Below are positions 9,211 through 63,573 of a DNA stretch of 64,000 bases, one piece after another. A program made the translations under genes and the position numbers. Each line of letters opens with the position of its first letter. Position 1 is the stretch's first letter. Source of the DNA: Candidatus Latescibacterota bacterium (GTDB lineage: Bacteria; Latescibacterota; UBA2968; GCA-2709665); NCBI GenBank assembly GCA_965116875.1, contig OZ220733.1:2784001-2848000 (forward strand), in the 5' to 3' direction. Under the pieces are notes generated by a model. It was not told the DNA's origin. It was given only the letters and a program-made list of their open reading frames with translations, and did not search any database.

Positions 9211-9215
9211 TTTGC

Positions 9216-9296
9216 AGGACGTTGAACTGGCGGGGCGTGGAATACCTCAAGACCGGATTCAATACCAACAGGATCGTACTATTGAGAAAACTCTGA
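9216..9296 (+). pseudogene. Relic of the 3' end of a DNA methyltransferase homologous to 5746..7017
   Basis: Translates RTLNWRGVEYLKTGFNTNRIVLLRKL* versus KTSNCWGVDNIKKGTNTNRIVLLRKS* (6937-7017); 16/26 residues identical. Confidence 0.8.
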
Positions 9297-9476
9297 GGAT
9301 TGCCATCTGTCACGAAAAAGAATAAGGGAGATCATATGACCCACTGACACCATTCTTGACAGCGAATCAAGACAAGCCCTTTGGACTCTCGAATGGGCTG
9401 AAATACCGACAGCAAGTCTACTACGCAACTCGATTTATCCGCGTTAACGCTAACCAGCCGGGGTAAGGACCGCTTT

Positions 9477-11444: not shown

Positions 11445-11448
11445 TGAT

Positions 11449-12495
11449 ATGGAGGACGTTGATATCCTGAATAACGACATAGGGATTGGAATTATCGGCG
11501 GCGGGAAAGCGGGGCGGAATTTTGCCCTGGCCATCCGGTCGTGCGCGGGCGCCGAGGTGCGAATGTTCTGCACGCGGAACGAGGACTCGGCACGGGCGGC
11601 GGCGGAATCATGTGGTGTTCCAGGATGGACCGCCAGCTATCCCGAGATGTTGCGGGATCCGGATATCCACGCGGTCATTGTCGCCACGCCCGATGAGTTT
11701 CACTGCGAGCACACGGTCCTGGCCGCCGGGGCGAAAAAACACGTGCTGTGCGAGAAGCCGATGTGCCGCTCTCCCGAAGAGGCCGATCAGATGATCCGGA
11801 AGACGCGGGAGAACGGCGTAATCCTGATGGTGGGGTTCACCGAACGGTACAGCCACCCGTGTATGGAAGCCAGGAGGCGGATCGATGCAGGCGAGATCGG
11901 CACGCCCCGGATGATGCTCGCCAGGAGGTGCCATCCGCATTCCGTGCTGAGAGGCCGGGCGTGGGTGAACGACGAGGAGACCGGCGGGGTCCTGAACTAT
12001 GCCGGACCGCACAATATCGACCTGATCTGCTGGCTGATGGGCGGGCCTCCCGAGCGCGTGTACGCGGAGATGGGACAGCTCATCCTGAAAGACCAGGACT
12101 TCACGGATTGCGCGGTGATGACGTTCAGGTTCCCCAACGGGTCCATCGCGACGCTCTACGAGACCTTTGCATACCCGGGGACCTATCCCCATGGCGTGGA
12201 CCGGAACATCGAGATTCTGGGAGACCGGGGCGTCCTGCACGTGGATTTCATGTCCCAGCCCCTGAAGGCGTTTACGGATTCCGGCTACCAGGTGGCCGAT
12301 TCGGTGACGTGGCCGATGGGGGAACGGGGCATCCAGGGAACGCTGCAGGCCGAAGTCGAGCATTTCATCGGATGCGTACGAGAGGGAAAAACGCCGCTGA
12401 CAACGGGCGAAGACGGCAAACTGGCCATGAGAATCGCACTTGCGGCAAGAGAGGCGGCCAGTTCCGGCAAGGCAATACCAATCCAGGACGCGTAA
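11449..12495 (+). CDS. Gfo/Idh/MocA family oxidoreductase
   Basis: GIIGGGKAG Rossmann motif, VATPDEFH, HVLCEKP, GGVLNYAGPHNID. Confidence 0.9.
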   Translation: MEDVDILNNDIGIGIIGGGKAGRNFALAIRSCAGAEVRMFCTRNEDSARAAAESCGVPGWTASYPEMLRDPDIHAVIVATPDEFHCEHTVLAAGAKKHVLCEKPMCRSPEEADQMIRKTRENGVILMVGFTERYSHPCMEARRRIDAGEIGTPRMMLARRCHPHSVLRGRAWVNDEETGGVLNYAGPHNIDLICWLMGGPPERVYAEMGQLILKDQDFTDCAVMTFRFPNGSIATLYETFAYPGTYPHGVDRNIEILGDRGVLHVDFMSQPLKAFTDSGYQVADSVTWPMGERGIQGTLQAEVEHFIGCVREGKTPLTTGEDGKLAMRIALAAREAASSGKAIPIQDA

Positions 12496-12526
12496 GTGAA
12501 TCGCTGGAATGCGCTCGGAGGTGAAG

Positions 12527-15500
12527 ATGATGTTGCCTGTCGTGCAGGATGCGCCGGTCCCGCGGCCGGGACGGTCCATCTGGTACACGGTGGATGCGAT
12601 TCGGAGGGCGCGGGAGAATATCCGTACCCATGCGTGGGCAGAAAGAGAGTGGGCGCGTATCAGCGCGGTTGCGGAGAAGTGGGTTCGGATGACTGACGAC
12701 CAGATACACGCACTGGTACCGGCCCGGGGGTCGATTTTCTGCAGCGGGCGGAACGGGAGCCCCTGCTGCAAGGCGGCCTGGCGGTGCGACGTGTCGCAGC
12801 CCGAAAAGGCGTACTGCGAGGCGTGTGGAAGGGAGTATCCCGAGACTCGCAAGGGGTCTCCGTTTCGGGACGAAGGACACGGTTTCTATTACGAGGGGAA
12901 ATGGTTTGCGCCGGTGCCCGTGTGGAACAGCTTTATTGTCAGTATGCTGAGTACCTATTCGTACGGGTCGGGCGGCCCCACGGATAACGCACTGTTGAAT
13001 CTGGCACTGGCCTACGCGATTACGGGCGAGACCCGATTCGGTGAAAAGGCGCTGTTCATTTACGATGCGCTGGCCACACTGGCGCCCACAACGATCGGTC
13101 CGCTGGATATTCCCGAGGGTCAGGAGCGGGAGATGGGTCGCATGCACGCGGAAACCTGCCACGTCAACCGGCAGCGCTTCGTGGACATGCAGGCGTACGA
13201 CCTGATCTCCGGTCTTCCGGCAATGGACGAGGTTTCGCCCTCGCGGGAGAACGGGCGCACAAGCATCCGGGAGAATATCGCCGGGGGGATGCTGGAAGAC
13301 TACGTGATGACGGAGGGCGGCGGGTACAATCTGCGCGAAGGAAATCTCACGCACTTCCAGAATCACGAACTGGACGGATTCCGGGCGCTGCTGTCCATCG
13401 GACTGGCGACGGACAGGCCCGATTTCATCACGTGGGCGGGCAGCGCGTTCCGGTCCTTTCTGGACAACGTGATCGGCCGGGACGGGGGGTACTACGAGAA
13501 CTCCGAGATGTACGCGTACTTCTCCGGTACGCTGATGCAGGACGTGGCGGAGTTGATGTACCACTACGATCCCGCCAGGTACGCGTCGTCCGAAGAATAC
13601 CCGAGGGCGGAAACGCTGATGGGGATCAGAAACGCATTCGATCACCCCCGCCTCGTCCGGCTGTGCCTGGAATACCCGGAGCTGACGCGGGCGTGCGGGC
13701 GCATCCCGTCTTATGGAAACACGAACGCGCTCCCGGGTTACCGGCCGCCTTCGGAACGGCAGGTGATGCCCTCGCAATGGTCTCTGCTGGAGCGGCTCTA
13801 CACTCGGAGTGACGACGCCGGAACGAGGCTCCGGGCGAAGGAACTGATGCTGGACCTGTCGGACGGCGCGGCGGAAAACGTCCGCAACGGCGCCTGGGCG
13901 CTGTTCAATTCGGAACCCGGGCCTGCCGGGGAAGGGCGGGCCGGTCCGCAATCCGCCTCTTCGTTCGCCGGTCACAAGGGCGTGGTGGTACTCCGCAGCG
14001 GCGCCGGCGACCGGTCGCGGGCGCTGGTTGTGCGGGGGGGCGCGAATCTGCTCTCACAGGACGACCAGTTGGCGGTTTTCCTGTACGACAGGGGCAGGAC
14101 GGTCATCGAAGACGTGGGGTACGCACTGGCCGGTTCGCAGGTGCACAAAGGATGGGGCATGCGGGCGATCTCCCACGCGATGGTGACGGTGGACGAGGAC
14201 ATTCCCACGTCCCAGGGCTACGAATTCGTACCGAGTGCGGACCTGGTCGCCTTCGAGGACCTGGGCGACGTGAAGGTGGCGGAATATTCGGCGCCGCTTT
14301 CACGCGTTCACCAGGGCGCAACCGGGTACCGCCGGGCGCTGGTCTTCTGCGACGTGGATGAGGCAACGTCCTATACGCTGGACCTGTTCCTGGTGGCCGG
14401 GGGGCGCATCCACGACTACGCGATGAACGGGCCCAGGTTCTTCGAAGAGGACTCCGGGTCGTATTCGCTGGAAGGCGTCTCGCCCCGGGCCGTCCCGGGG
14501 GTCTGGACACTTGCGGCGCTGGGGACGATGGACGGCTCCGAGGAGGCGAACGCGCCAGGCAGGAGTTGGGGGGAGCGGATCGGCCCGAACGACCGCATTC
14601 AGGGCGTGGCCGCCCCGGATGGAAGCCCGTTGCCCTACGGGTGGCTGCCGCCCCCCGGGAACGGGTACGCGTTCATCCACGACGTCAGGACCGCCCCGCT
14701 GGATCGCGACGCGTACGCTCGCTGGCGGTTCGGAGATGCGCGGGATACCCGGTTCGGCGTCTGGTTTCCCGCCGATCCTTCAGCGACGCTGGTGGCAGCG
14801 AAGGGTCCCGATCTGCGAGGCGCGCAGCAGATCCACCGTCTGATCGTTCGGAGGGAAGGCGAGAACCTGAAGAGCCTCTTCGTCAGTGTATTCGAGGCTC
14901 ATTCCGGGTCGCGCAGCGTGACGGGCGTAAAGGTGCTTGCGCGAGAGGAGGAAGCAGGGAGCGCGGCCGTGCGGGTCGAACTGGCGGACGGCCGGCGGGA
15001 CACGCATCTGTTTTCAAGGTCCGGCCGGATGGAACTGCGTGACGGCGACGGGGTACCGATCGCGCTTGAGGGACGGTTCGGCGTTGTTCGCGAACGGAAC
15101 GGCGAGGCGGCGCTTCACCTCGTGGAAGGGACGAGACTGCGGTATGGGAGCACCGAAACGCGGCTCTCCCGGGCGGTCTTCGACGCACGAATCATGGAGC
15201 TGGACGCCGATGGGGAATCCGTCACGATCGACCGGAGTCTCCCGGACGGTTTGCCGCTGGACGGGCGCCTGTGCCGGGTGGAATCGGGCGAGGCGGAAAC
15301 GCCCTATTCTCACGGCTCCGCATATCGGATTGCCGCCGCGGAGGACGGGAGGAACGCCCGTCTCCTCCTGCAGCACGGCGATCCCCGGCTGGTGAGAGGC
15401 AAGATTGTCTCGGTCGAGCCCCCGGACGTTCTGGTCTGCGACGTGCCGCTCGCGTTTGCATGGGGGTTCAACAACAGTGGGGACAAGGGTGAATACAGGG

Positions 15501-15691
15501 GAAAGCAGTTGCGTACGGAGGACGGCGCCTTCGCGTCGCGAATCGTCGAACTGCTTGCATTCAAGAAGATCCGGCTGGAAACTGTGGCAGGACTGCGGGC
15601 GGGGAGCCGGTTCGAAATCCTGGACTTCAAGCCCGGCGATCGGATTTCGATTCCGAATTCCGGCAGCGAATGCCTGGATCGGCGGGGCTGA
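12527..15691 (+). CDS. Large heparinase II/III-like (lyase-fold) protein with N-terminal Cys cluster
   Basis: Motifs LALAYAITGETRF, QNH, DGGYYENSEMY, IPSYGN, VVVLRSG, EDVGY, SHAMVTVDE; CEACG Cys cluster. No signal peptide. GGAGG RBS before 12527. Confidence 0.7.
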   Translation: MMLPVVQDAPVPRPGRSIWYTVDAIRRARENIRTHAWAEREWARISAVAEKWVRMTDDQIHALVPARGSIFCSGRNGSPCCKAAWRCDVSQPEKAYCEACGREYPETRKGSPFRDEGHGFYYEGKWFAPVPVWNSFIVSMLSTYSYGSGGPTDNALLNLALAYAITGETRFGEKALFIYDALATLAPTTIGPLDIPEGQEREMGRMHAETCHVNRQRFVDMQAYDLISGLPAMDEVSPSRENGRTSIRENIAGGMLEDYVMTEGGGYNLREGNLTHFQNHELDGFRALLSIGLATDRPDFITWAGSAFRSFLDNVIGRDGGYYENSEMYAYFSGTLMQDVAELMYHYDPARYASSEEYPRAETLMGIRNAFDHPRLVRLCLEYPELTRACGRIPSYGNTNALPGYRPPSERQVMPSQWSLLERLYTRSDDAGTRLRAKELMLDLSDGAAENVRNGAWALFNSEPGPAGEGRAGPQSASSFAGHKGVVVLRSGAGDRSRALVVRGGANLLSQDDQLAVFLYDRGRTVIEDVGYALAGSQVHKGWGMRAISHAMVTVDEDIPTSQGYEFVPSADLVAFEDLGDVKVAEYSAPLSRVHQGATGYRRALVFCDVDEATSYTLDLFLVAGGRIHDYAMNGPRFFEEDSGSYSLEGVSPRAVPGVWTLAALGTMDGSEEANAPGRSWGERIGPNDRIQGVAAPDGSPLPYGWLPPPGNGYAFIHDVRTAPLDRDAYARWRFGDARDTRFGVWFPADPSATLVAAKGPDLRGAQQIHRLIVRREGENLKSLFVSVFEAHSGSRSVTGVKVLAREEEAGSAAVRVELADGRRDTHLFSRSGRMELRDGDGVPIALEGRFGVVRERNGEAALHLVEGTRLRYGSTETRLSRAVFDARIMELDADGESVTIDRSLPDGLPLDGRLCRVESGEAETPYSHGSAYRIAAAEDGRNARLLLQHGDPRLVRGKIVSVEPPDVLVCDVPLAFAWGFNNSGDKGEYRGKQLRTEDGAFASRIVELLAFKKIRLETVAGLRAGSRFEILDFKPGDRISIPNSGSECLDRRG

Positions 15692-15774
15692 AGAACGGTC
15701 AAAAACGGATGGGGGAATGCCGCCGCGAGGCTTGATCACACGGTTCGGAGTTCGGATGTGGAGGCCCTTTCCCC

Positions 15775-15802
15775 TTGAAAATTCGAGATATTTCCATATT
15801 AT
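15775..15802 (+). promoter_or_regulatory. Candidate sigma70 promoter for the membrane-protein operon
   Basis: TTGAAA-16 nt-TATTAT in an AT-rich patch about 110 nt upstream of 15913. Confidence 0.45.
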
Positions 15803-15912
15803 GCGCGGTGTCGTTTCCCCTTTTCCGTTGCAGTCGGGACGGCAGGCCGTCCGGGTGTTGGTACACGTGAGAGTTCAACCCGGTTTCGGCGCCTGAAAAC
15901 CTGGAGAGGGAT

Positions 15913-17877
15913 ATGCAACAGACGCAACCGGATTCGATTCCTGAAACGGCGTCAGGCCTGGAACGACGCGGCGTAACCATGCGGGCGGTGGCGATCGGGC
16001 TCGGCGTCGCTCTGTTCATACAGGGCTGGGGCATCTTTTCCAGCCGGGTGATCCGGTCGTCCGGCGTGACGTCCGGATTTCTTTCGCCCGCACTGTTTAT
16101 CGCGATCCTACTCGTCCTGTTCGTCCTGAATCCCTTCCTGAGGCGGGTCGTTCGGTCCGCGGGGCTCAGCCTCGCGGAGATCCTGACGATATTCGCGATG
16201 GGACTGATGGGCGGCGCGCCCATCGCGGCATTGTATGCCTTCATCACCATACCGTACTACCTGGCCACTCCGGAAAACCAGTGGGGCGCGCTTCTTCACC
16301 CGCACCTGCCTTCGTGGGTCGCGCCCCTCGACGTGGACGGCGCCGTTACGCTCCTGTTCAACGGCCTGCCGGGCGGTCAGGGCGCGATTCCATGGGGGGC
16401 GTGGGTCGTGCCCATGTTCTGGTGGGTGCTGCTGTTCTGCGTGCTGGCGTTCGCCGCGGCTTCGCTTTCGGTGATCCTCCGGAAACAATGGGTGGAACAC
16501 GAGCGGTTGAGATACCCGGTGCTGGAGCCGATCGTGGAGATGGCCTCCGGCTCCGATACGGGCGGTCTGTGGCCGAAATTCGCCCGGGGCAAGCTGTTCT
16601 GGTTCGGGGCGGGGTTCGCGTTCGTCTTTATCTTCTGGAATGCGCTGCCCTGGATCTCCCCCGCCTTTCCCGAGATGCCGGTTCGGGGGCGGGTGTACGC
16701 CTTCTTCGGGCGGGATATGCCGCCGATGTTCAGCTATATCGATCCGTTCACGTTCGCGTTTTCCTATTTCGCGAATCTGGACGTTCTGTTCAGCGTGTGG
16801 TTCTTCTTCGCCGTGTTCGTGCTGGAATTCGGGATTTTCAACCGGCTGGGCTACAGTATCGGAGGGCGCGGCGACCGGTACGGTTCCTATGACGCGGCAT
16901 CAAGCTGGCAGGGCCTGGGCGCGTTCTGCGTCTTCGTGCTGTTCGGTCTGTGGATGGCCAGGCGCCACCTGAAAGACGTTGTGATGAAGGCCTGGCGGTC
17001 CGACCACTCCGTGGACGATTCCGGTGAGATGCTGTCGTACCGCACCGCGGTTGTCGGCATTCTGTTGGGCTTCGTGTTCACGGTCGTGTGGCTGAACCGG
17101 GCGGGCATGGACCTGCAGATGGCCATCCCGCTGGTGGCGATGCTGTTTGTTCTCTACATCGGCGTGGCGCGGATTATCGCCGAATCGGGCCTCCTGTACG
17201 TGCAGGGCCCAATGACCGCCCAGAGTTTTTCGGTCTATCTGCTGGGGGCCAAAGCCGTGTCGCCGTCCAGCCTGACCACGCTCCTGTTTTCCTACCCGAT
17301 CCACGCGAATTCGACCTCGCAGATGTCTCACGTGGCCAAGGTGGGCGAACAGGTCCGGGATCGCGGAAGGCGCCTGTTCTGGGCAGTGGGCCTGTCCTTT
17401 CTGGCGACGACAATGGTCGTGATCATCGGGACGCTTTTTCTGGGCTATACCCGCGGCGCCGAGAATTTCGGACACGGCTTCATCTGCGGGGGCGTCCATA
17501 ATTTTCCGGATACCGTGAGCAAGATCAAGGAGCCGTTCGACGTCGACTGGAACCGGATCATGTTCTTTGGTATCGGCGCCGCGGTGATGGTGGTCCTTAC
17601 GTTCCTCCGCTACCGGTTCCCGTGGTGGCCGATCCACCCGGTGGGGTTCGCCATTATGGGTACGGATCTGGTACGGAATTTTGCGCTGACCCTGTTTCTG
17701 GCGTGGTCGTGCAAGACGGTTATCCTGCGGGTTGGCGGGAACTCACTGTTTCGGCAGGCGCAGCCGTTTTTCCTCGGCCTGCTTGTGGGGCACGTCCTTG
17801 GGATAACCGGGGCATTTCTCGTGGACATGTTCATGTTCCCCGGAGCCGGGCACAGCATCCATCCGTGGATCGAATAG
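15913..17877 (+). CDS. DUF6785/DUF6784-like multi-pass membrane protein (putative oligomer transporter)
   Basis: Many TM segments; PYYLATPENQW, IPWGAWVVP, RKQWVEHERLRYP, RIIAESG, WWPIHPVG, QPFFLGL. Confidence 0.8.
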   Translation: MQQTQPDSIPETASGLERRGVTMRAVAIGLGVALFIQGWGIFSSRVIRSSGVTSGFLSPALFIAILLVLFVLNPFLRRVVRSAGLSLAEILTIFAMGLMGGAPIAALYAFITIPYYLATPENQWGALLHPHLPSWVAPLDVDGAVTLLFNGLPGGQGAIPWGAWVVPMFWWVLLFCVLAFAAASLSVILRKQWVEHERLRYPVLEPIVEMASGSDTGGLWPKFARGKLFWFGAGFAFVFIFWNALPWISPAFPEMPVRGRVYAFFGRDMPPMFSYIDPFTFAFSYFANLDVLFSVWFFFAVFVLEFGIFNRLGYSIGGRGDRYGSYDAASSWQGLGAFCVFVLFGLWMARRHLKDVVMKAWRSDHSVDDSGEMLSYRTAVVGILLGFVFTVVWLNRAGMDLQMAIPLVAMLFVLYIGVARIIAESGLLYVQGPMTAQSFSVYLLGAKAVSPSSLTTLLFSYPIHANSTSQMSHVAKVGEQVRDRGRRLFWAVGLSFLATTMVVIIGTLFLGYTRGAENFGHGFICGGVHNFPDTVSKIKEPFDVDWNRIMFFGIGAAVMVVLTFLRYRFPWWPIHPVGFAIMGTDLVRNFALTLFLAWSCKTVILRVGGNSLFRQAQPFFLGLLVGHVLGITGAFLVDMFMFPGAGHSIHPWIE

Positions 17878-50167: not shown

Positions 50168-50336
50168 CGTTGATAGGTGCCTCCTGCACGTAAGTACGGT
50201 CGACTCCACTGCTGTCCAAGAACCGTGGGATTCTCATAGATATGGTTTGAGAAGTGGCTTCAATTCGCGATCTTGAACGGGTCTGATCCGGATAACGGAA
50301 ACCAGGTTGCCATCGGTCGGTGTTTGGTGTAACGTA

Positions 50337-50853
50337 TGTCATTCTGAGCGGCGTCGAAGCATCTTTCGCCGCTTCCGTCTCGCGCTGCAGGCGGACGTGC
50401 TGCCTCTCCGGTATCGAGACGAGCAAATCGCAACAGGGTGATCCGATGCTGCAGTAGATCCTTCGTCGGCCTAGGGGCCTCCTCTGGATGACAGCGGGAA
50501 GCCACGTGCATGACAATCGTAAGACATGTCATTCTGAGCGCGCTGGCCTCCTCAGGATGACATGTTCTGCGAAGGTGTGGGCTCAGCGTTTTGCCAATAG
50601 TTATCGCAAGACATGTCAATCAGAGCGCAGCGAAGAATCTCCCGTATTCTCGAATGTACGTGTTGCATTTGGTCTTTGTAGATGAACTTGTGCGCGGACA
50701 CTTCAACTGCCTGATGCCCCTTCGACCCTTCGACAAGCTTGCTTCGACAGGCTCAGCACAAGCAGGACAACGGCTCAGGGACCGCAGGCTCAGGGCAAGT
50801 CCTCAGGATGACAGTCTTGTCGAAGGTAGGACCGCCTCGTTTTGCCAATGGTT
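50337..50853. repeat. Cluster of TGTCATTCTGAG...CTCAGGATGACA palindromic elements with nested CTTCGACA(A/G)GCT / GCTCAG repeats
   Basis: Three inverted pairs (50337-50493, 50527-50562, 50614-50813). GAAGGT...CGTTTTGCCAAT.GTT is repeated at about 50571 and 50822. Confidence 0.7.
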
Positions 50854-54479: not shown

Positions 54480-57311
54480 ATGTGCCTGGATAATCATCGG
54501 CTGTTGAAACCATTGTGCCGTCTGTTCGTCGCAACGCTCTTCATTGCCGTGCCAACAGACGCAAAGGAGGCCCATGTCATGAAAACCGATGAAGGTACGA
54601 CGGAAACCGGGAATTCGAAGACGATCGGCGTTACCGGATCGGTCTTCATGCAGGCAGAGGCCGCCGGGATCGACACCCGCCGGGCGGAGGTCGTCGCACA
54701 AAGCGGTTTCTCCGGTGAAAAGGGCGTTTCGCTCAAGGCCGGCGTGGCCGCCAACGTGGAGTCGTCCGGCGTCGGCCCGGACCTGGTTTTCAGGGTACGT
54801 GCGTCCAGGGCCGGGCGGTACGTGATCCGCACGCACGCGGCCACGGACGCCAGGGGCAGCGAGACCATGCGAAAGGCCAGGAGTAAGTTTGATTCAATGT
54901 ACCTTAAGATCGCCGTCGGAGATGCCCGCCCCACCAAACGCGTGGTATTCGTGCCATGGAGCCGACCGGAGAGTTGCACGCAGACAGCCGGAAAGTTCAA
55001 TCTCGACGAACGGGATCAGGAGATCCGGGTCTGGCTGCCGGAGGGCGTGCGCCTGGATTACCTCGAGGTAAGCCCGTACACGCCGCCTGACGTCCCTGAG
55101 GCCGCGACCGAATACCGGCCGGAGGTCGTTCCGCCGGCATCCCGTCCGCGTGTCTGGGTGAACGAACAGTCGCTGCCGGCGGTCCGGGCGAACCTGACAA
55201 AAGGCGAAAACGCGCCGCTCTGGGACCAGGTGAGGGAACAGGCGGCCGAACCCTTCGCGTTTGAAGCTGAACCGGGTACGGAAGTTCCCTATAACGCCGA
55301 ACTCGAAAAAGCCGCCGTTGCCAGGGCTTTCGTTTATTTGATGAACGGTGAAGAAACGCCCGGCCGGGAAGCGGTGGCGCTGGTTCGCGACTATCTTGCC
55401 GCGGTCGAATTCGGAAACCTGCTCGACATCACGCGGGAAATCGGTCGCGCCATCTACTCTGCAGCTCTGGTCTACGACTGGTGCTACGACTTGATGACAC
55501 CCGACGACCGGGAGAGCATCCGCGGCAATCTCATGCGTCTTGCCGACGATATGGAAATCGGCTGGCCGCCGTTCAAGCAGATCATCGTCAACGGCCATGG
55601 CAACGAGGCGCAGGTCAACCGCGATCTGCTATGCATGGCCATCGCCATCTACGACGAAGACCCGGTGCCGTATCGATACTGCGCCTACCGCATCCTGGAA
55701 GAACTCGTTCCGATGCGCCGGTTCGAATACCAGTCCCCGCGCCACAACCAGGGCGTCAGCTACGGCCCGTACCGGTTCGGCTGGGATATGCACGCCGCCT
55801 GGCTCTTTTACCGCATGACCGGCCAGCGTGTCTTCGACGACAATATCGCGGACGTCTGGAAGTTCTGGCTCTACATGCGCATGCCGAACGAAGAGACGCT
55901 GCGAGACGGCGACGGGTTTTCTGACGGCAGGCCGGCAAGTCTCGGCGCTACCGCGCTGCTCAGTTCCGCGTACAGCAGCGATCCGGTTATCAAGCGCGAT
56001 TTCGAGCGGCAGGGCGGGCTTCCCGCGGACCCGATCATGGTGCTGCTGCTGAACGACCCGGACCTGAAGGCTGCGGAAAACTTCGATTCATTGCCGCGCA
56101 CCATCGACTTCGGCCCGGTCCTCGGTTCGATGGTTGCCCGGACCGGCTGGAACATGGGCCCGGGCGTGTCCGACGTGGTCGTGGAGATGAAGGGCGGGGG
56201 ATATCACTTCGGCAATCACCAGCACGCTGACGCGGGCAGCTTCCAGATCTACTACCGCGGGCTCCAGGCGGCCGATCTGGGGCAGTACCATTTCTATGGA
56301 ACGCCCTACGATTTCAATTTCTGCAAGCGTTCGGTTTCGCACAGCATGATGCTGGCGGTCGATCCCGATGAGCAGTACATCCGCAATACCGTCAATGACG
56401 GAGGCGCGCGCTTCATTCAGTCATGCCCAACCACACCGGAACAGGCGCTTTCGGATCCGACGTTCGCCAACGGCGAGGTCGTCTCGGCCGGCTTTGGCCC
56501 GTCGCCGCAGCGGCCGTTCTACAGCACCTTCTCGGTCAACCTGACGTCGGCGTACAGCGAGAAGATCGAGGACTACGTCCGGTCTTTCTGCTTCCTGAAT
56601 CTCGACAACGAGCAGACTCCCGCGGTTCTGATCGTCCTGGACAACATGACCACCGCCAGACCGGAGTTCAGGAAATACTGGCAGGTCAACACCCTCAACC
56701 CTCCCGAAACCACGGACGACGGCGTGATCCTGAGAAACAGCGACGCTGACGGGACCGGAAAGGTCGTACTCCGGATGCTGAGGCCGGGGGCGAATGAGCG
56801 GGACCTTCAGGTTCTGAGCGGCAAGGAAGCCAACAGCGTGTTCGGACAGGTTTTCACGCCGCCGAAACCCGACCGGCCGGAAGCGAACGGGCATCGTGTG
56901 ATGTTCTCGCCTGCCAACGAGCAGGCCAACGATGTGTTTCTGACGGTGATGTCGATCTCTGAAGAACAGGCGCCGGACCTGCCGGTTGACCTCGTGGAAC
57001 TCCCCGAAGCCTTCGTCGTTTCGCTGGCAGACCGTGTGGTGGTCTTGAGCCGGACCGGCAAGCTGCTGGAACAGCCGCTGAAGGTTGACGTTGCCGCCGG
57101 CGAAAGCCGCCAGTTGCTGCTGGCCGGCCTGGCGCCGGGCGACTGGAGTATTCGCGACCGGGACGGTAACGTCCAGTATAACGCCCGCGTCGAGGCTCGG
57201 AGAAACACCGCGTATTTTGTGGTTCCCGGCGGGCAGTACACCGTTCAACCCGAAGCCATCCCCGGCGCGACGGAGTTCCAGGCCCCACCGGACTTCATGC
57301 CAGGGCTCTGA
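54480..57311 (+). CDS. Heparinase II-like (PL21/HepB-like) lyase with N-terminal CBM-like extension
   Basis: ALVYDWCY, GHGNEAQ, HNQGVSYG, LRDGD, ARTGW, NHQHADAGSFQIYYRG; these match remembered heparinase II motifs. Confidence 0.8.
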   Translation: MCLDNHRLLKPLCRLFVATLFIAVPTDAKEAHVMKTDEGTTETGNSKTIGVTGSVFMQAEAAGIDTRRAEVVAQSGFSGEKGVSLKAGVAANVESSGVGPDLVFRVRASRAGRYVIRTHAATDARGSETMRKARSKFDSMYLKIAVGDARPTKRVVFVPWSRPESCTQTAGKFNLDERDQEIRVWLPEGVRLDYLEVSPYTPPDVPEAATEYRPEVVPPASRPRVWVNEQSLPAVRANLTKGENAPLWDQVREQAAEPFAFEAEPGTEVPYNAELEKAAVARAFVYLMNGEETPGREAVALVRDYLAAVEFGNLLDITREIGRAIYSAALVYDWCYDLMTPDDRESIRGNLMRLADDMEIGWPPFKQIIVNGHGNEAQVNRDLLCMAIAIYDEDPVPYRYCAYRILEELVPMRRFEYQSPRHNQGVSYGPYRFGWDMHAAWLFYRMTGQRVFDDNIADVWKFWLYMRMPNEETLRDGDGFSDGRPASLGATALLSSAYSSDPVIKRDFERQGGLPADPIMVLLLNDPDLKAAENFDSLPRTIDFGPVLGSMVARTGWNMGPGVSDVVVEMKGGGYHFGNHQHADAGSFQIYYRGLQAADLGQYHFYGTPYDFNFCKRSVSHSMMLAVDPDEQYIRNTVNDGGARFIQSCPTTPEQALSDPTFANGEVVSAGFGPSPQRPFYSTFSVNLTSAYSEKIEDYVRSFCFLNLDNEQTPAVLIVLDNMTTARPEFRKYWQVNTLNPPETTDDGVILRNSDADGTGKVVLRMLRPGANERDLQVLSGKEANSVFGQVFTPPKPDRPEANGHRVMFSPANEQANDVFLTVMSISEEQAPDLPVDLVELPEAFVVSLADRVVVLSRTGKLLEQPLKVDVAAGESRQLLLAGLAPGDWSIRDRDGNVQYNARVEARRNTAYFVVPGGQYTVQPEAIPGATEFQAPPDFMPGL

Positions 57312-57348
57312 TAGGTGCCAGGACGAAAACAAGCTAGATTGGATTTCG

Positions 57349-58374
57349 CTATGCCGGTTTTCGGGCGTGGACGAAGTACATCGGCGTGAAGATTCCCAGC
57401 CGACCCGCTTCGACCATGGCTTCCGCACAGAGGTCCAGAGTTTCCACAACGCGGACCGATCCATGCGGCGCCACGCGGGTCGCCTCGAGCGCCTTAAGGG
57501 TATTCCTGGTGATCCAGCGCCCGAACCTCGATCTGCGAAAACCTGCCAGAGAAAAACCGGAACCGATCAGCGGTTGATACCAGGGGATGGACGGACCACT
57601 CTGGATCGAAAGATCCCGAACTTCCAATAACTCAAAGCCAACCGTTCGAAGCGCTTGATCGACCGTGTGCGTGTCGTCGATTACGAACAGGCTGCCTCCC
57701 AGCTGGATGTCGGCCTTGATTCTGAGATGGTGGGGATCGCCGACGTCGAAACGGTCGGTCAAGCAGTATTGGTAACCGCCAAAGCATCCGCCCGGTTTCA
57801 GAAGACGAAAGATCTCGCCATAGATGCTGAGTTTATCCGGTGCATGGCAGGTCGCCTCGATATCGTAGACAGCGTCGAACGACTCGTCCGGGGCGTCCAC
57901 GTTCAGGAAGTCGCATTGCAGGAACTCGACCTGGTGCGTCAGGCCCGCTTCTTCCGTGCGTTTCCGGGCGCGTTCGAGTTGATAGGCATTGATGTTTACC
58001 CCGACGATCCTGGCGCCGGAAAAGCGTGCGATCTCCAGTAACGGCCCGCCAACGCCGCAACCCACGTCGGCAACGACCATCCCGGTTTTGAGTCCGAGTA
58101 CCTGCGCCAGATGGCGTTGGTGGCGTACAAGCGATGCCTCGAAGCTCTCTCCCGGGACACGCGGGGCAAAGTGAAATGATCTGCCCCATCCGTATTCATA
58201 GAAGTCCGTAACCAGATCGTAGTAGAGAACGCTGACTTTCCTGTCGTCGCTGTCGTCATTCCCCGCGACGGCTTCCCTGGCCATCCTGAAACCTTCCTCG
58301 TATTCGCGGATGGTCTGTTGGGCGCCGGAATTGTCCTGTTTGTGTTTCAGGTCTCTTGAGAGTTTGACTGGCAT
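57349..58374 (-). CDS. smt: Sterol 24-C-methyltransferase (ERG6/SMT family)
   Basis: YYDLVTDFYEYGWGRSFHFAP, DVGCGVGGP, IEATCHAP, LLKPGG, C-terminal GIFTPMYF..ARKP. Confidence 0.9.
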   Translation of the reverse strand: MPVKLSRDLKHKQDNSGAQQTIREYEEGFRMAREAVAGNDDSDDRKVSVLYYDLVTDFYEYGWGRSFHFAPRVPGESFEASLVRHQRHLAQVLGLKTGMVVADVGCGVGGPLLEIARFSGARIVGVNINAYQLERARKRTEEAGLTHQVEFLQCDFLNVDAPDESFDAVYDIEATCHAPDKLSIYGEIFRLLKPGGCFGGYQYCLTDRFDVGDPHHLRIKADIQLGGSLFVIDDTHTVDQALRTVGFELLEVRDLSIQSGPSIPWYQPLIGSGFSLAGFRRSRFGRWITRNTLKALEATRVAPHGSVRVVETLDLCAEAMVEAGRLGIFTPMYFVHARKPA

Positions 58375-58487
58375 CGAATTGCTCCCCGGCGCGTTCTTTC
58401 GGTTTTATGGCCCGTGGCACGGAATCCGGAGACCGGACGGCCTTCCTTTCCGAAATGTAAACGAAAAATAGGCCGCCCGCCATAGAG

Positions 58488-58528
58488 AAAAAAATCGGCG
58501 CCTTGTATCGGAAACACAGGGCGCCGAT
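58488..58528 (-). terminator. Intrinsic terminator (minus strand)
   Basis: Stem atcggcgcc...ggcgccgat followed by a T-run on the minus strand. Confidence 0.65.
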
Positions 58529-58602
58529 ATCGCTACAAAGTCGCTCGCTGAAACGCACTCATGGGTTCAAACCGCACCTTCGCGACCTGCCCCGGTCCCT
58601 TC

Positions 58603-58800
58603 CTAATATTCCTGGATATCCACTTTCTCGCGAAACGCTGTCAGGTCGAGGTCTCCCCGGCTATAGGCATCGACATCCTGCTTCTTGACCTTCAGCACTA
58701 AGCTACGTTGTTTTAGCTTGCTGCTGCGTAATCCTACAAGGAAGCGAACTTCAACTACGATGTATTCATCACCCGCGGACTCGTCCTGATCACGGGTATG
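58603..58800 (-). pseudogene. Orphan C-terminal fragment of a hypothetical protein
   Basis: Protein-like tail EYIVVEVRF...LVLKVKKQDVDAYSRGDLDLTAFREKVDIQEY* followed by a terminator; no convincing start or RBS. Confidence 0.4.
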
Positions 58801-58993
58801 TGTCAGGATACCGATTGACATCATAAGGGATTTTAATCATGGTTGGATCATGATGAAGAATAGCGGGTCGCTCGTGTATGTTTTCAGTCTGTATCGTCAT
58901 CAGAACACTCGCGGCACAACCGACGCAACGAGCCGTCTGAGCGCATCCCCGAATCACAATTTCGGGGAAATGCGGGATAACAGGAGAACGTGA

Positions 58994-59773
58994 ATGAAAT
59001 CGGATTTGCGGAAGGAATATGATGACAAGGGATTCTGCATCGCGAGCGGGGCGATAGACGCGGGTCTGGCGGCAGAAACGGTCGATCACGTGCGGTGGCT
59101 GGTCAAGAGGCATCCCGAAACACGGCCCGAGAAATTGCACCATCGTCTGCTTGTGGACGATCCGTTTATGCACCGGCTGGTCTGCGACGACCGGCTGCTG
59201 GATATCGCGGCACAGTTCATCGGACCCAACGTGGCCATGTTCGGCGCCCACTATATCGCCAAGAAGCCCGAGACCGGGCAGGCCGTGCGATGGCACCAGG
59301 ACGGATCCTACTGGCCGCTGGAGCCGATGGAAGTGACAACGCTTTGGGTCGCGGGAACCGATTCCACCGTTGAAAACGGGTGCATGCGGGTCTTGCCGGG
59401 GACGCACACCCGGAAACTGTTGAAGGCCTCGGAGATGGTGGAACTGGACACCAAAAAGTACGTTCTCGGAATCGGTATGCGTCCCGATCAGATCGACGAG
59501 GCGGATGCCGTGGACGTGGAACTCAAAGCGGGGGATATTTCCATCCACCACCCCAATATCATCCACGGCTCCAACTACAATACGTCGGACCAGTGGCGGG
59601 TGGGGCTCACCCTTCGCTATATTCCCACCAGCACTCACGTCACACGGAAGGAACAGCGGTCCATCCTGTGCCGGGGGGCGCCGATCCCCGAGGTCGGAAA
59701 CTTCTATGTGCCGCGGCCGAAATACGTCGAAGGAAAACACATGGCCTTTGCGGGGTGTGAGGCGTGGGTGTAG
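58994..59773 (+). CDS. PhyH-family Fe(II)/2-oxoglutarate dioxygenase
   Basis: WHQDGSYW, ENGCMRVLPGTH, AGD.S.H...IHGS..N...RVGLTLRY; AGGAG RBS. Confidence 0.9.
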   Translation: MKSDLRKEYDDKGFCIASGAIDAGLAAETVDHVRWLVKRHPETRPEKLHHRLLVDDPFMHRLVCDDRLLDIAAQFIGPNVAMFGAHYIAKKPETGQAVRWHQDGSYWPLEPMEVTTLWVAGTDSTVENGCMRVLPGTHTRKLLKASEMVELDTKKYVLGIGMRPDQIDEADAVDVELKAGDISIHHPNIIHGSNYNTSDQWRVGLTLRYIPTSTHVTRKEQRSILCRGAPIPEVGNFYVPRPKYVEGKHMAFAGCEAWV

Positions 59774-60000
59774 TCCGGGTTCACGGGATTGAGGATATCT
59801 GGGGACCGAGGGCGCCTGCCCGCGGCGGGGAATGTGCGGAGCCGTGCCGCGGTAGCCACGAATGCCGTTCCCGGGAGCGAGGGCAGAGATGTCCTCGACG
59901 GCGAATGCGATAGGCCGTGGCGCCAACGTTTCTATGAATCCGGGCGATAGATCCGACGAGTAACCGCTGTTCTCCCACAATATCTCGAGTCAACTTTCCG

Positions 60001-63000
60001 ATGAAACTGGAAGATCTCAAGCCGGACACGACCGTCCGCGGCATCGTTCCCGACGGCGTCGTGACCGTCGTAAACGTGCAATGGCACGGCTCCGGAGCGC
60101 TTACACTGATCTACCGTCCTTCCTCCGGACAGGTTGCCGAGGAGATTCTCTACCGGCACGACGAGGCTCGGCTCGAGATCGTCGAGCACGGCCGCCCTTG
60201 GAGTTTCGACGGGGACGGCGCGTTGTTCCGTCTCGTGTCCGAAGCTTACCGCATCCGTCTCGCCCACCTTTTCGATCCTGTCCTGGCTGTCCATACCTCG
60301 CTGGTAGAGCCGCTCCCGCACCAGATCACGGCGGTATATGAGGCCATGCTGCCCCGCCAACCGCTGCGTTTCCTGCTGGCGGACGATCCCGGCGCCGGAA
60401 AAACAATCATGGCCGGCCTGTTGATGAAGGAACTCGTCGCCCGCGGCGATCTCAGGCGGTGCCTGGTGGTATGCCCCGGAAGCCTCGCGGAGCAGTGGCA
60501 GGACGAACTGTACCGGCGTTTCAACCTCCCCTTCGAGATTCTGACGAACGATAAGCTTGACGCCGCCCGTACCGGCAATTGGTTCCTCGAAAACGACCTC
60601 GCCATCGCACGGTTGGACAAACTCGCCCGCAACGAGGACCTGCAGGACAAGCTGGGCGCACGTGACTGTCGCTATGACCTCGTCGTCTGCGACGAAGCGC
60701 ACAAGATGTCGGCAACCTTTTTCGGAGGCGAGGTGAGATACACCAAACGCTACAGACTTGGGCAACTGCTATCCAATCTCACCCGTCACTTCTTGCTGAT
60801 GACGGCCACACCGCATAACGGCAAGGAAACGGACTTTCAACTCTTTCTCGCCCTTCTGGACGGCGACCGTTTCGAAGGACGATTTCGGGACGGCGTTCAC
60901 CAGGTGGAGGTTTCCGATCTGATGCGCCGTATGGTGAAAGAGAACCTGCTCAAGTTCGACGGACGCCCGTTGTTCCCCGAACGCATCGCGTATTCCGTGC
61001 CATACAAGCTGACCGACGCCGAAGCCCGGCTGTACAAAGAGGTGACGGACTACGTCCGTGAAGAGTTCAATCGCGCGGAGGCGTTGCAAAGCGATACTCG
61101 TGCGGGCACCGTAGGCTTTGCACTCACCATCCTGCAGCGGCGCCTGGCATCCTCACCCGAGGCGATTCACCAGTCGCTGAGGCGGCGGCGTGAACGGCTT
61201 GAAAGTCGCCTTCGAGAACTGAGTCTGCTGCAACGCGGCGCGGGGCAATCGGAAGCGATCCCGCAGTCCGGTCCGTTATTCGATGCCGAAGACGTAGAGG
61301 ACCTGGACGACGCCCCTTACGAAGAGGTAGAGGCCACGGAGTCCCGCTTGCTGGACGAGGCGACGGCGGCCGGCACGATCGCCGAATGGAAGGCGGAGAT
61401 TACTTCGCTCAAGCGCCTGGAGAGCATAGCAGCCGGAATCCTGAAAAGCGGCGAAGATACAAAGTGGCGCGAACTGTCCAACCTGCTGGGAGAGATATTC
61501 ACTCAGGCCGGTCTGGGCGCCCCGGCTGGTGAGAAGGCCGAACCGTACGGCAGCGGCGCCATCCCGCCGCCGGTACCGTCGGCGAGCCAGAAACTGGTCA
61601 TCTTCACCGAGCACCGCGACACGTTGAATTATCTCGAGCGGCGCATTGCGACACTCCTTGGGCGGCCTTCGGGCATCGTCACCATTCACGGGAGCATGGG
61701 GCGCGAGGATCGCCGCAAGGCTCAGGAGGCGTTTCTCCACGATCCGCTTGTGCGGGTGCTGCTGGCCACGGACGCTGCTGGCGAGGGTATCAACCTTCAG
61801 CGCGCCCACCTGATGGTGAACTACGATCTGCCGTGGAATCCGAACCGTATCGAACAGCGGTTTGGGCGCATCCACCGCATCGGTCAAACTGAGGTCTGTC
61901 ATCTCTGGAATCTGATAGCGGAAGAGACCCGGGAAGGTGACGTGTACCGGACCCTGCTGGACAAGCTCGAGCAGGCACGAAGCGCCCTGGGCGGCCAGGT
62001 CTTCGACGTGCTCGGTAGAATCCAGTTCGATGGTCGCCCGTTAAGAGAACTGCTGATTGAGGCGATCCGCTACGGCGAGCAGCCTGAAGTGCGTGCACGG
62101 CTTTCCGAGGCGGTCAGCGATGCAGTAGACCAGCCGCATCTACAGGAACTGATCGAGGAGAGGGCCCTCGCCCATGACGCAATGGATTCGACCCGGGTCG
62201 CGAGGGTGCGAGAGGAGATGGAACGCGCCGAGGCAAGGCGATTGCAGCCGCATTATATAGAGTCGTTCTTCCTGGAAGCGTTCAGACGACTCGGCGGTGC
62301 GGCGCGACGCCGCGAACCGGGCCGGTACGGGATTACGCACGTCCCGGCAACTGTGCGCAACCGCGACCGGCAGATCGGCCTTGGCGAACCCGTTCTTGCG
62401 CGCTACGAACGCATCGCATTCGATAAGAAACACCTTACGCCGCAGGGGCAGACGCCCGCCGCGTTCGTCTGCCCGGGACATCCCTTGCTCGATGCCGTTC
62501 TCGACCTCACATTGGAACGCCACCGCGACCTCCTGCAGCGCGGCGCCGTGCTCGTGGACGAACGGGACCCGGGCATGGAAACGCGGGTCATCTTCTCGCT
62601 GGAGCATGCAATTAAAGACGCGAGTGTCGTGCCGAGCGGCGAGGGTCGCGTTATTTCACGCCGGACGCTATACGTGGAGATCAATCCCGCCGGTGTGAAA
62701 CGCCGTCTCGACTACGCGCCGTACCTCGATTATCGGCCGCTGGCGGACCACGATCCGGGTGTAGCCGACATCCTGGCACGACCCGAGTGCGGATGGATCA
62801 CCCGTGAGCTGGAGCAGCAGGCGCGGGAAGAGGCCATCGCCGGGATCGTACCGAAACACCTCGGTGAAGTTCGGGACCGGCGCCTCACTCTTGTTGCGAA
62901 AACCCGCGCGGCGGTGAAGGAGCGGCTGACCAAGGAGATGTCGCACTGGGACCACCGCGCACAGGAGTTGAAGCTCCAGGAAGAAGTCGGCAAGGCCGGG

Positions 63001-63573
63001 GCAGGGCTTAACTCACGCGAGGCCCAAAGGCGGGCCGATGACTTGCAGGAACGCCTCCACCAACGCATGGCCCAACTCGAACGCGAGGAAAAAATCTCCG
63101 CGCTTCCACCCTCCGTCATCGGCGGGCTTGTGGTGGTACCCATGGGACTTCTGGCTGACATGACTGGAACCTCCGCGCCCCGGCGCCCCATCGACACCCA
63201 GAAGTCGGCGGCAAAAGCCCGTGCCATCATAATGGAAGTCGAGCGCGGCCTTGGATTCGAGCCCGTTGATCGCGAGACCGAACGCCTCGGCTATGACATC
63301 GAGAGTCGCGTTCCTGGAACCGGAAAGCTCCGGTTTATCGAAGTGAAAGGCCGACAATCCGGCGAAGATTCGGTTACCGTAACGAGAAACGAGATTCTCA
63401 CCGCACTGAACAAACCGGACGACTTCATCCTCGGCATCGTCGAATTCCTGGATGGCGGCGACCATCACGTACACTACCTGCGCCGGCCCTTCCAAAAGGA
63501 GCCGGATTTCGACGTAACCAGCGTCAACTACAAACTGAAAGAGTTGATCAAGCGGGCAGGGAAACCGGCCTGA
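60001..63573 (+). CDS. SNF2-family helicase with C-terminal DUF3883 (PD-(D/E)xK-like) domain; probable defence-system component
   Basis: PLPHQ, LADDPGAGKT, DEAH, TATPHNG, QRRLASS, ATDAAGEGINLQ, QRFGRIHRIGQ; C-terminal GYDIES...FIEVKG...VTRNE. Confidence 0.9.
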   Translation: MKLEDLKPDTTVRGIVPDGVVTVVNVQWHGSGALTLIYRPSSGQVAEEILYRHDEARLEIVEHGRPWSFDGDGALFRLVSEAYRIRLAHLFDPVLAVHTSLVEPLPHQITAVYEAMLPRQPLRFLLADDPGAGKTIMAGLLMKELVARGDLRRCLVVCPGSLAEQWQDELYRRFNLPFEILTNDKLDAARTGNWFLENDLAIARLDKLARNEDLQDKLGARDCRYDLVVCDEAHKMSATFFGGEVRYTKRYRLGQLLSNLTRHFLLMTATPHNGKETDFQLFLALLDGDRFEGRFRDGVHQVEVSDLMRRMVKENLLKFDGRPLFPERIAYSVPYKLTDAEARLYKEVTDYVREEFNRAEALQSDTRAGTVGFALTILQRRLASSPEAIHQSLRRRRERLESRLRELSLLQRGAGQSEAIPQSGPLFDAEDVEDLDDAPYEEVEATESRLLDEATAAGTIAEWKAEITSLKRLESIAAGILKSGEDTKWRELSNLLGEIFTQAGLGAPAGEKAEPYGSGAIPPPVPSASQKLVIFTEHRDTLNYLERRIATLLGRPSGIVTIHGSMGREDRRKAQEAFLHDPLVRVLLATDAAGEGINLQRAHLMVNYDLPWNPNRIEQRFGRIHRIGQTEVCHLWNLIAEETREGDVYRTLLDKLEQARSALGGQVFDVLGRIQFDGRPLRELLIEAIRYGEQPEVRARLSEAVSDAVDQPHLQELIEERALAHDAMDSTRVARVREEMERAEARRLQPHYIESFFLEAFRRLGGAARRREPGRYGITHVPATVRNRDRQIGLGEPVLARYERIAFDKKHLTPQGQTPAAFVCPGHPLLDAVLDLTLERHRDLLQRGAVLVDERDPGMETRVIFSLEHAIKDASVVPSGEGRVISRRTLYVEINPAGVKRRLDYAPYLDYRPLADHDPGVADILARPECGWITRELEQQAREEAIAGIVPKHLGEVRDRRLTLVAKTRAAVKERLTKEMSHWDHRAQELKLQEEVGKAGAGLNSREAQRRADDLQERLHQRMAQLEREEKISALPPSVIGGLVVVPMGLLADMTGTSAPRRPIDTQKSAAKARAIIMEVERGLGFEPVDRETERLGYDIESRVPGTGKLRFIEVKGRQSGEDSVTVTRNEILTALNKPDDFILGIVEFLDGGDHHVHYLRRPFQKEPDFDVTSVNYKLKELIKRAGKPA

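Follow-up and report, generated by a model that had tools for sequence, protein, structure and literature searches.

A stand-alone member of the sterol C-24 methyltransferase family in the closed genome of a Candidatus Latescibacterota bacterium

Introduction

Steranes with an alkylated side chain, and 24-isopropylcholestane in particular, are interpreted as the fossils of early sponges, and the sterol C-24 methyltransferases (SMTs) of bacteria weaken that reading. Here we describe an SMT-family gene at positions 57349-58374 of a 64,000-nucleotide stretch of DNA (hereafter the window; GenBank assembly GCA_965116875.1, contig OZ220733.1, positions 2,784,001 to 2,848,000) from a Candidatus Latescibacterota bacterium. 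A preliminary description took the product for a stand-alone SMT of eukaryotic type and noted that bacterial homologues, sponge-metagenome ones included, had already been reported, which published work on sponge-symbiont and stand-alone SMTs bears out (PMC10070321, PMC9531527). According to the main text of Brown et al. (2023, PMC10070321), eight of ten SMTs from sponge symbionts and 12 of 14 from the environment were able to methylate desmosterol, 24-methylenecholesterol or both, three being propylating enzymes, and an active SMT was found in a Chlamydiae metagenome-assembled genome (MAG) from drinking water that holds no other sterol genes, for which the modification of host-acquired sterols was proposed. 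The main text of Kelly et al. (2022, PMC9531527) reports that SMT1/ERG6 is enriched in MAGs of Ircinia sponges, that steroid clusters occur in ten phyla by horizontal transfer, and that the phylogenies of the core steroid genes of these MAGs conflict with the genome tree. Latescibacterota are mentioned in neither main text, and that of Brown et al. mentions no Chloroflexi, Dehalococcoidia, Gemmatimonadota, Acidimicrobiia or Poribacteria; our literature search found no paper on an SMT in the window's lineage. Bacterial, sponge-symbiont and stand-alone SMTs are already published, and the window adds a closed-genome case, in another lineage, that lacks a sterol pathway. On balance our analysis favours a sterol side-chain C-methyltransferase of the SMT/ERG6 family, of a clade that we call type A, which was probably acquired horizontally and would act on exogenous delta-24 sterols, likely those of a sponge host.

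Sequence and motifs of the gene

The features of the gene are listed below. Yeast numbering is the motif numbering in the text of a 2025 preprint by Brown and Welander (10.64898/2025.12.19.695621) mapped onto an alignment of 86 clade rows, which holds the window protein and every locus open reading frame (ORF) that reaches 60% identity over 320 residues or more; a Cladosporium ERG6 row supports the register.

57349..58374, minus strand: SMT gene (protein P0001), ATG start, 341 amino acids, no internal stop; sterol C-24 methyltransferase family
58168..58200, minus strand: Region I sterol-binding motif YEYGWGRSFHF, residues 59-69; Y59 and Y61 are yeast 81 and 83
57781..58068, minus strand: S-adenosylmethionine (SAM)-dependent methyltransferase domain, residues 103-198 (Methyltransf_11, 75.1 bits), including Region II
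57838..57861, minus strand: Region III IEATCHAP, residues 172-179; E173 is yeast E195, and E stands in 86 of 86 clade rows
57766..57774, minus strand: YQY, residues 201-203, yeast 223-225, where the usual form is YEW
57691..57708, minus strand: IQLGGS, residues 223-228; G227 is yeast position 249
57355..57543, minus strand: Sterol_MT_C C-terminal domain (PF08498), residues 278-340, Pfam 79.1 bits
58382..58387, minus strand: Shine-Dalgarno-like GGGGAG, 7 nucleotides 5' of the SMT ATG, read from the sequence and of putative function

Judged by its sequence, this ORF encodes a genuine and intact member of the SMT/ERG6 family. The Sterol_MT_C match scores 79.1 bits against a Pfam cut-off of 21.7 (82.7 bits in the whole-genome scan), and since the same model was silent in all 14 control genomes, the match lies far beyond chance. 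The class I methyltransferase models Methyltransf_11, _25 and _31 give 73-76 bits. Every motif quoted in the preliminary description (YEYGWGxSFHF, DVGCGVGGP, IEATCHAP, GIFTPM, YQY and IQLGGS) is present in the 341 residues; Region II, DVGCGVGGP, which binds SAM, occupies residues 103-111 and fits DxGxGxxGP, and GIFTPM occupies residues 327-332. The 25 residues that functional SMTs are reported to conserve are all found in the protein and are near-invariant over the 86 clade rows, and the G, W, G, F, H and F of Region I are invariant in all 86. The gene is maintained by selection, since the ratio of nonsynonymous to synonymous substitution (dN/dS) is 0.19-0.30 against same-genus and Dehalococcoidia homologues. 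An NCBIfam scan of the protein gave no family above cut-off, the top model, CfaB, scoring 56 bits where 650 is required, which fits 'methyltransferase domain-containing protein' as the source name of the relatives. A sequence search of the PDB found no solved SMT: the top match was MitM (84 bits), and 6f5z, named '24-sterol C-methyltransferase', scored 32 bits.

Relatives and phylogeny

A word-indexed search returned 119 other clusters at 67-94% identity to the SMT, nearly all of them 337-342 amino acids long. Among contigs taken at one genome per species, 210 stretches encode a relative, and our locus counts and labels rest on the best 80 of these 210, which lie at 63-85% identity. By label, these 80 loci belong to Chloroflexota (63, of which 48 are Dehalococcoidia), Acidimicrobiia (13), Gemmatimonadota (one), Ca. 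Latescibacterota (one) and unlabelled MAGs (two). The records labelled Gemmatimonadota and Latescibacterota (loci L003 and L004) come from the same genus as the window's genome; the L004 genome and the window's organism have RpoB proteins of 97% identity, and the cyclase-like matches of the L003 and L004 genomes share coordinates with those of G097 and G103, also of this genus. In an exhaustive search of representatives at 50% identity, 405 clusters were found at E <=1e-30, and the whole type A clade fell into one of them.

A first tree of 150 rows was made with FastTree from the window protein, the SMT ORFs of 28 of the 80 loci (L003, L004 and every third, two loci giving two ORFs each), L090-L100, and 108 of 150 representatives, those 300-480 amino acids long. 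A more careful tree (IQ-TREE, LG+C20 PMSF) was built from 63 rows chosen to span all clades. In the latter the window protein falls inside the SMT family, within a 20-row clade (support 100/99) of Chloroflexota, Actinomycetota and its own genus. MAGs labelled Dehalococcoidia and Acidimicrobiia and those of the window's genus share this tight clade at 64-85% identity. Its four rows from the window's genus (99/99) branch from within the Dehalococcoidia, with moderate support (83-94). One branch (97/81, with one change in 100% of the bootstrap trees) splits 26 rows from bacterial genomes from eight eukaryote-named rows, namely a rice SMT1-like protein, Spizellomyces SMT, Cladosporium ERG6, Mesostigma, Fabomonas and three transcriptome clusters. 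The window SMT lies on the bacterial side of this branch, so 'eukaryote-type' was the wrong label for it. The deep branches of the tree are weak, as they are in the main text of Brown et al. (2023, PMC10070321).

A scan of the window's phylum gave a Sterol_MT_C match in 30 of 168 genomes, and in eight of the 14 other genomes of the window's genus; type A is carried by four of the 15 genomes of the genus. Two further SMT clades were seen in the phylum. One groups with proteins of Ca. Dadabacteria MAGs (L091 and L092; G097 and G103, of the same genus), and the other (L178-L182) forms a long branch of about 20 genomes, 72-74% identical to the second SMT of a Dehalococcoidia MAG (L045_14426), in which two different SMT types stand within 4.4 kb (L045 9953 and 14426). 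Some congeners likewise carry two SMT types. Tandem duplicates of type A occur in Acidimicrobiia MAGs (L075 8955-9980 and 10001-11026, and similarly L079 and L082).

Genome context

The genome that holds the window is a closed single contig of 5,453,092 bases (5.45 Mb), 97.7% complete and without N, and its one Sterol_MT_C match is of type A, the only SMT type that it carries. The preliminary description saw no sterol-synthesis genes in the window, and a Pfam scan of 29 of its 33 non-overlapping ORFs of at least 100 amino acids found none; the families met there were heparinase II/III-like, GFO/IDH/MocA, PhyH, DUF6785/6784, carrageenase-like propeller and SNF2 helicase. Its view of the SMT as stand-alone extends to the whole closed genome, which gave no triterpenoid cyclase, no squalene epoxidase (PF08491) and no ERG4/ERG24 sterol reductase, so that no de novo bacterial pathway to alkylated sterols was found there. 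No neighbour gene is conserved over 81 SMT loci. The most widespread one, a generic short-chain dehydrogenase/reductase, was tried as an SMT partner and rejected: it occurs at 19 of the 81 loci, and its distance and orientation vary. The genes that adjoin the SMT in L003 and L004 (ECF sigma factor, FMN_bind and ApbE) include none related to sterols.

Outside the window, at G000:C1:4434052-4437175 (L084), the genome carries a complete hpnC-hpnD-hpnE operon for squalene synthesis whose three products all exceed the NCBIfam equivalog cut-offs. With this operon and neither a squalene-hopene nor an oxidosqualene cyclase (OSC), the organism makes squalene and lacks an enzyme that would cyclise it. 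The same situation was met in 27 of 50 genomes that carry type A.

Horizontal transfer and the site of insertion

Identities to the window's organism differ from gene to gene. In same-genus G002 they are 85% for the SMT, 93% for HpnD and 97% for RpoB; in the Dehalococcoidia G003 and G004, 74% for the SMT and 45-46% for HpnD, with RpoB in pieces of 46-75%; and in the Acidimicrobiales genome G006, 71% for the SMT and 32% for HpnD. Synonymous differences to the Dehalococcoidia SMT of L005 are unsaturated (pS 0.51). Because the SMT is more similar across phyla than RpoB of the same genomes, the type A SMT has likely moved horizontally among Chloroflexota (Dehalococcoidia), Actinomycetota (Acidimicrobiia) and the window's genus.

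Comparison with congeners delimits what is present or absent at the site:

57339..58803, no strand assigned: SMT presence/absence cassette of about 1.46 kb, the SMT gene and about 430 nucleotides upstream, from congener comparison
58487..58528, minus strand: terminator-like hairpin (ATCGGCGCC...GGCGCCGAT followed by a T run) upstream of the SMT, with putative function

In the SMT-negative congener G108 (L187), homology to the window stops after 57338 and starts again at 58804, some 70 unrelated nucleotides lying between. The empty site of G106 resembles that of G108, and in G102 and G105 homology ends at 57301-57338; G104, L003 and L004 carry the SMT at the same site as the window. The empty site in G108 marks the SMT as a cassette of one gene and about 1.46 kb that a genome either has or lacks at this place, and we suggest that it entered the genus in this form, next to a heparinase-like gene on one side and a PhyH gene on the other. 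The cassette showed no direct repeats at its flanks.

The hairpin sits in an element of about 120 nucleotides of which L003 and L004 have two copies and the window one. A promoter and terminator consensus scan gave counts no higher than shuffled sequence, and the hairpin was not among its listings. We also observed a variable spot upstream of the SMT (window 58433-58850 against L003/L004 2681-9848), where L003 and L004 hold about 7 kb more, with an ECF sigma factor, unknowns, FMN_bind and ApbE, bounded by the two element copies; the window's version consists of one element and a 73-amino-acid ORF that has no Pfam match.

Substitutions and the number of methylations

The preliminary description singled out YQY and IQLGGS as unusual, and both are indeed rare among 106 other family representatives. 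At yeast position 224 these have E or D in 98 cases and Q in one, against Q in seven of the 86 clade rows, and 88 of them have W at 225. At 246, E is found in 80 of the 106 and Q in none, against Q in 33 of the 86 clade rows. At 249, G is found in four of the 106 and in 74 of the 86 clade rows, Cladosporium ERG6 having D, as the text of the preprint (10.64898/2025.12.19.695621) implies for yeast. The assignment of G227 to yeast 249 follows from an offset of 22 that is constant from position 74 to 268, with G217 and G268 flanking. It was also suggested that the substitutions may change the number of methylations or the product, and this has gained substance for the number, since the IQLGGS segment contains position 249, which the same text finds decisive for it.

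According to the text of this preprint (10.64898/2025.12.19.695621), Gly at 249 is necessary and not sufficient for propylation of the side chain, Phe at 81 and/or 83 occurs in all four propylating SMTs tested, and Ala243 with Asn180 is commonest in ethylating bacterial SMTs. The window SMT has G249 together with A243 and N180, but Tyr at both 81 and 83, so it shares the first of the two marks of propylating enzymes and not the second. We predict one methylation, with two being possible and propylation unlikely. Within the clade, Tyr stands at position 81 in 76 rows and at 83 in 82, the other ten and four having Phe; L090, of the same genus, and L023 combine G249, F81 and F83. The type A clade thus offers natural variants at 81, 83, 224 and 249 on which the published rules for methylation number could be tested.

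Distribution of sterol genes among type A carriers

We searched 50 of the 80 type A carrier genomes for cyclases and for SQS_PSY genes. A cyclase above the family cut-off was found in 23 and in 27 there was none. On the osq_cycl model no carrier reached the strict cut-off of 851 bits; five genomes carry a further cyclase that scores 703-725 bits and the others score 189-271, and the two low scorers that were checked are squalene-hopene cyclases (743 and 801 bits on TIGR01507). The cyclase of G017 is OSC-like, at 720 bits against 286 on the hopene-cyclase model, and lies in a Dehalococcoidia MAG cluster (L183, G017:C1:2693000-2712999, ORFs 8563-16774) with a squalene epoxidase, an MMPL transporter that bears a sterol-sensing domain, and a P450-GPP34 fusion, about 120 kb from the SMT of that genome. 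G006, G019, G021 and G023 hold a similar OSC-like cyclase, and all five of these carriers have ERG4/24 homologues; at L009 such a homologue stands 6.6 kb from the type A SMT. The other 45 of the 50 have no OSC-like cyclase. Among 29 other SMT-positive genomes of the window's phylum, 28 are without any cyclase and only G092 has one, with ERG4/24 homologues beside its SMT. With an OSC-like cyclase in five of 50, a minority of type A carriers can probably make sterols and most, like the window's organism, cannot. Separately, a cyclase fragment interrupted by TGA stops was seen in a Dehalococcoidia carrier (G034:C1:2945896-2946219) and looks like a decayed squalene-hopene cyclase.

Proposed activity and alternatives

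The absence of triterpenoid cyclase, squalene epoxidase and sterol reductase suggests that the enzyme most likely acts on delta-24 sterols from outside, probably supplied by a sponge host; the preliminary description had likewise supposed host or dietary sterols. In favour of sterols count the OSC-like cyclases of five type A carriers, the ERG4/24 homologue near the SMT at L009 and the activity of published sponge-symbiont and environmental SMTs, and in favour of a sponge habitat the near-identical SMT pieces in runs labelled 'sponge metagenome'. The methyl group of SAM would be transferred to the C-24 double bond, and deprotonation would then yield 24-methyl(ene) and possibly 24-ethyl sterols; what is methylated, that it comes from outside and how many methyl groups are added are all our predictions. 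Several points weigh against this proposal. Squalene shares its terminal isopropylidene group with the side chain of delta-24 sterols, and the genome makes squalene. No sterol uptake or binding gene was identified in the genome. A search for a sterol-sensing domain gave a single weak match of 26 bits, to a generic HAE3/MMPL transporter that shares 23-30% identity with that of the G017 sterol cluster, and this result is uninformative because the model also matches six of 14 controls. The protein has Q in place of a near-universal acidic residue at both 224 and 246. We know of no assay of the window SMT or, as far as could be told, of any member of type A, and the contig names of tested SMTs given in the main texts match none of our 80 loci. 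Finally, in published tests 11 SMT homologues methylated neither of the two sterols supplied, four of them having kept all conserved residues (PMC10070321; 10.64898/2025.12.19.695621).

The two glutamines and the inactive homologues could mean that the protein is itself inactive on common sterols or has drifted to another acceptor, with E224Q and E246Q marking the change. Q224 and Q246 are found, respectively, in one and in none of the 106 other representatives, and the same two reports count 4 of 24 (2023) and 6 of 10 (2025) metagenomic SMTs that methylated neither sterol offered, four of which do not deviate at conserved residues. However, positions 224 and 246 lie outside the 25 conserved residues of functional SMTs, all of which the window protein retains, and the two glutamines recur within a clade whose genes are under purifying selection. 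We regard a loss or change of activity as unlikely, though worth keeping in view.

A second alternative, which seems to us quite unlikely, is that the native substrate is the organism's own squalene, or another linear isoprenoid made through HpnC, HpnD and HpnE, whose terminal double bond would be methylated as by TMT-1 and TMT-2 of Botryococcus braunii. Such squalene-methylating, SMT-like enzymes exist (Niehaus et al. 2012, as summarised in PMC3533583), the operon for squalene is present, and no cyclase of the genome would use squalene up. Moreover, all 50 carriers examined have two SQS_PSY genes, so squalene is always available to type A, and 27 of them lack a cyclase. On the other hand, the Botryococcus enzymes are described in that source as having variant sterol-binding domains, whereas Region I of the window SMT is canonical. 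HpnD also behaves as a trait of lineages, unlinked to the SMT: in family f1 it is matched in 20 of 21 genomes, in f2 in 30 of 31 and in f3 in all three, with or without an SMT, while an SMT occurs in only 9 of 21 (f1) and 8 of 31 (f2). In family f4, 12 of 76 genomes have an SMT and HpnD matches are only partial, at 70 bits. An OSC-like cyclase or cluster accompanies type A in five of 50 carriers, and related metagenomic SMTs methylate sterols in vitro (main text of PMC10070321). Because HpnD and SMT are unlinked and Region I is canonical, we favour sterols over squalene as the substrate and hold this part of the proposal to be fairly probable.

It is very improbable that the organism makes sterols de novo through cyclisation and epoxidation enzymes beyond the models used, the SMT finishing the pathway. 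Squalene synthesis and two P450 genes are present, and sterol clusters are reported for sponge-associated MAGs of ten phyla in the main text of PMC9531527. But the search for an OSC advised in the preliminary description, made with three cyclase models over the closed genome, yielded only a 21-25-bit match in a 289-amino-acid frame, against 500-800 bits on real cyclases in comparison genomes, and squalene epoxidase gave no match. Since the 14 control genomes were silent for the ERG4/24 model, that search was repeated with positive-control genomes, namely the five with an OSC-like cyclase and G092, which also bears a cyclase; the model found ERG4/24 in six of six and not in the window's genome. 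Of the two P450s, the stronger resembles generic, carotenoid-hydroxylase and BM3-type structures most among the 60 PDB matches listed, and not CYP51.

As for the integrity of the locus, Logan contigs of run X1, possibly the source sample, show 0 differences over 56400-57391 and 57364-59900 and thereby cross both ends of the gene, and in run X2, from another study, 58141-59900 is covered with 0 differences; runs X3 and X4, labelled 'sponge metagenome', contain pieces of the SMT with 0-1 differences in about 180-200 nucleotides. Downstream of the SMT, L003, L004 and G104 keep the gene order of the window, with flanking genes at 76-89% and SMTs at 74-85% identity. In X1, contigs from other organisms match the last 54 or so nucleotides of the SMT (57349-57402) at no less than 90%, with a summed depth of 221 against about 13 around, so many SMT genes in that sample share a near-identical 3' end. 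X1 unitigs break in the last 43 nucleotides of the SMT, within this conserved stretch and its pile-up of foreign contigs. No evidence was found for an assembly chimera or eukaryotic contamination, and either is so improbable as to be negligible, given the same gene order in three other assemblies, the empty site of a congener, identical short-read contigs in two studies, a gene GC content (58.0%) near that of the genome (59.6%) and the bacterial position in the tree.

Other features of the window

The region 1668-57311 holds a dense set of likely glycosaminoglycan- and polysaccharide-degradation genes, with three heparinase II/III-like proteins, two large carrageenase-like propeller and FG-GAP proteins, a BNR sialidase-like protein, four GFO/IDH/MocA oxidoreductases and two PhyH dioxygenases; within it two DUF6785/DUF6784 proteins flank a 1570-amino-acid FtsX-like protein. 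At 50326-50853 the GC content is low (0.535), and REP-like palindromic repeats (such as TCGTAAGACATGTCATTCTGAG / CTCAGGATGACATGTTCTGCGA) occur with direct repeats of 26-54 nucleotides; the ORFs that overlap this segment have no Pfam match. A 1190-amino-acid SNF2/ResIII helicase with a C-terminal NOV_C domain (60001-63573) and an N6_N4 DNA methylase (5746-7017) may be related to defence.

Discussion

An SMT in a genome that lacks a sterol pathway proves to be a general pattern, seen in the 45 of 50 type A carriers that have no OSC-like cyclase and in the 28 of 29 other SMT genomes of the phylum that have no cyclase. If such enzymes act on host sterols, a sponge owes part of its sterol profile to its microbiome, and the number of SMT genes in a host is a poor guide to which organism makes a given sterol. 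More speculatively, type A and the two further SMT clades of the phylum might all be enzymes that tailor host sterols, spread horizontally among sponge-symbiont phyla that mostly make no sterols themselves, so that much of the sterol alkylation of the holobiont would be the work of symbionts, including 24-ethyl and, where Gly249 meets Phe81/83 as in L090, 24-isopropyl products; we offer this as a doubtful possibility that merits attention. A bolder variant would have these enzymes methylate the symbionts' own squalene.

Comparison with known systems

Eukaryotic SMT1/ERG6 proteins share Regions I-IV and the C-terminal domain with the window SMT, at identities over most of the length of 52% (rice cycloartenol-C24-methyltransferase 1-like, P0126), 47% (Spizellomyces SMT, P0136) and 46% (Cladosporium ERG6, P0141). 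Unlike them, the window protein lacks the longer N-terminus of the fungal enzymes (380-393 amino acids), reads YQY where they have YEW, and carries G in place of N or D at 249. The TMT-1 and TMT-2 enzymes of Botryococcus braunii are SMT-like and act on a terminal isopropylidene group, and squalene is available in the window's bacterium too; their sterol-binding domains are described as variant (PMC3533583), and the Region I found here is canonical.

The SMT of the Chlamydiae MAG is, in the main text that describes it, likewise a functional-type SMT in a genome without other sterol-synthesis homologues. It differs in having Phe83, in making 24-isopropyl sterols and in belonging to another phylum and presumably another clade, and, unlike the obligately intracellular Chlamydiae, the window's organism has a genome of 5.45 Mb rich in polysaccharide-degradation genes. 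In the Ircinia MAGs the SMT is found, as here, in sponge-associated phyla that include Dehalococcoidia, Acidimicrobiia and Gemmatimonadetes, but there it often flanks an ERG24-CYP51-LSS cluster (main text of PMC9531527), of which the window's genome has no counterpart. With the propylating bacterial SMTs the window protein shares Gly249 but not Phe at 81 and 83, and with the ethylating ones, as given in the text of the 2025 preprint, it shares Ala243 and Asn180. With the published sponge-symbiont and environmental SMTs as a whole it has in common the family, the pair of domains, the 25 conserved residues, a place on a bacterial branch of the SMT tree and sponge-associated sources.

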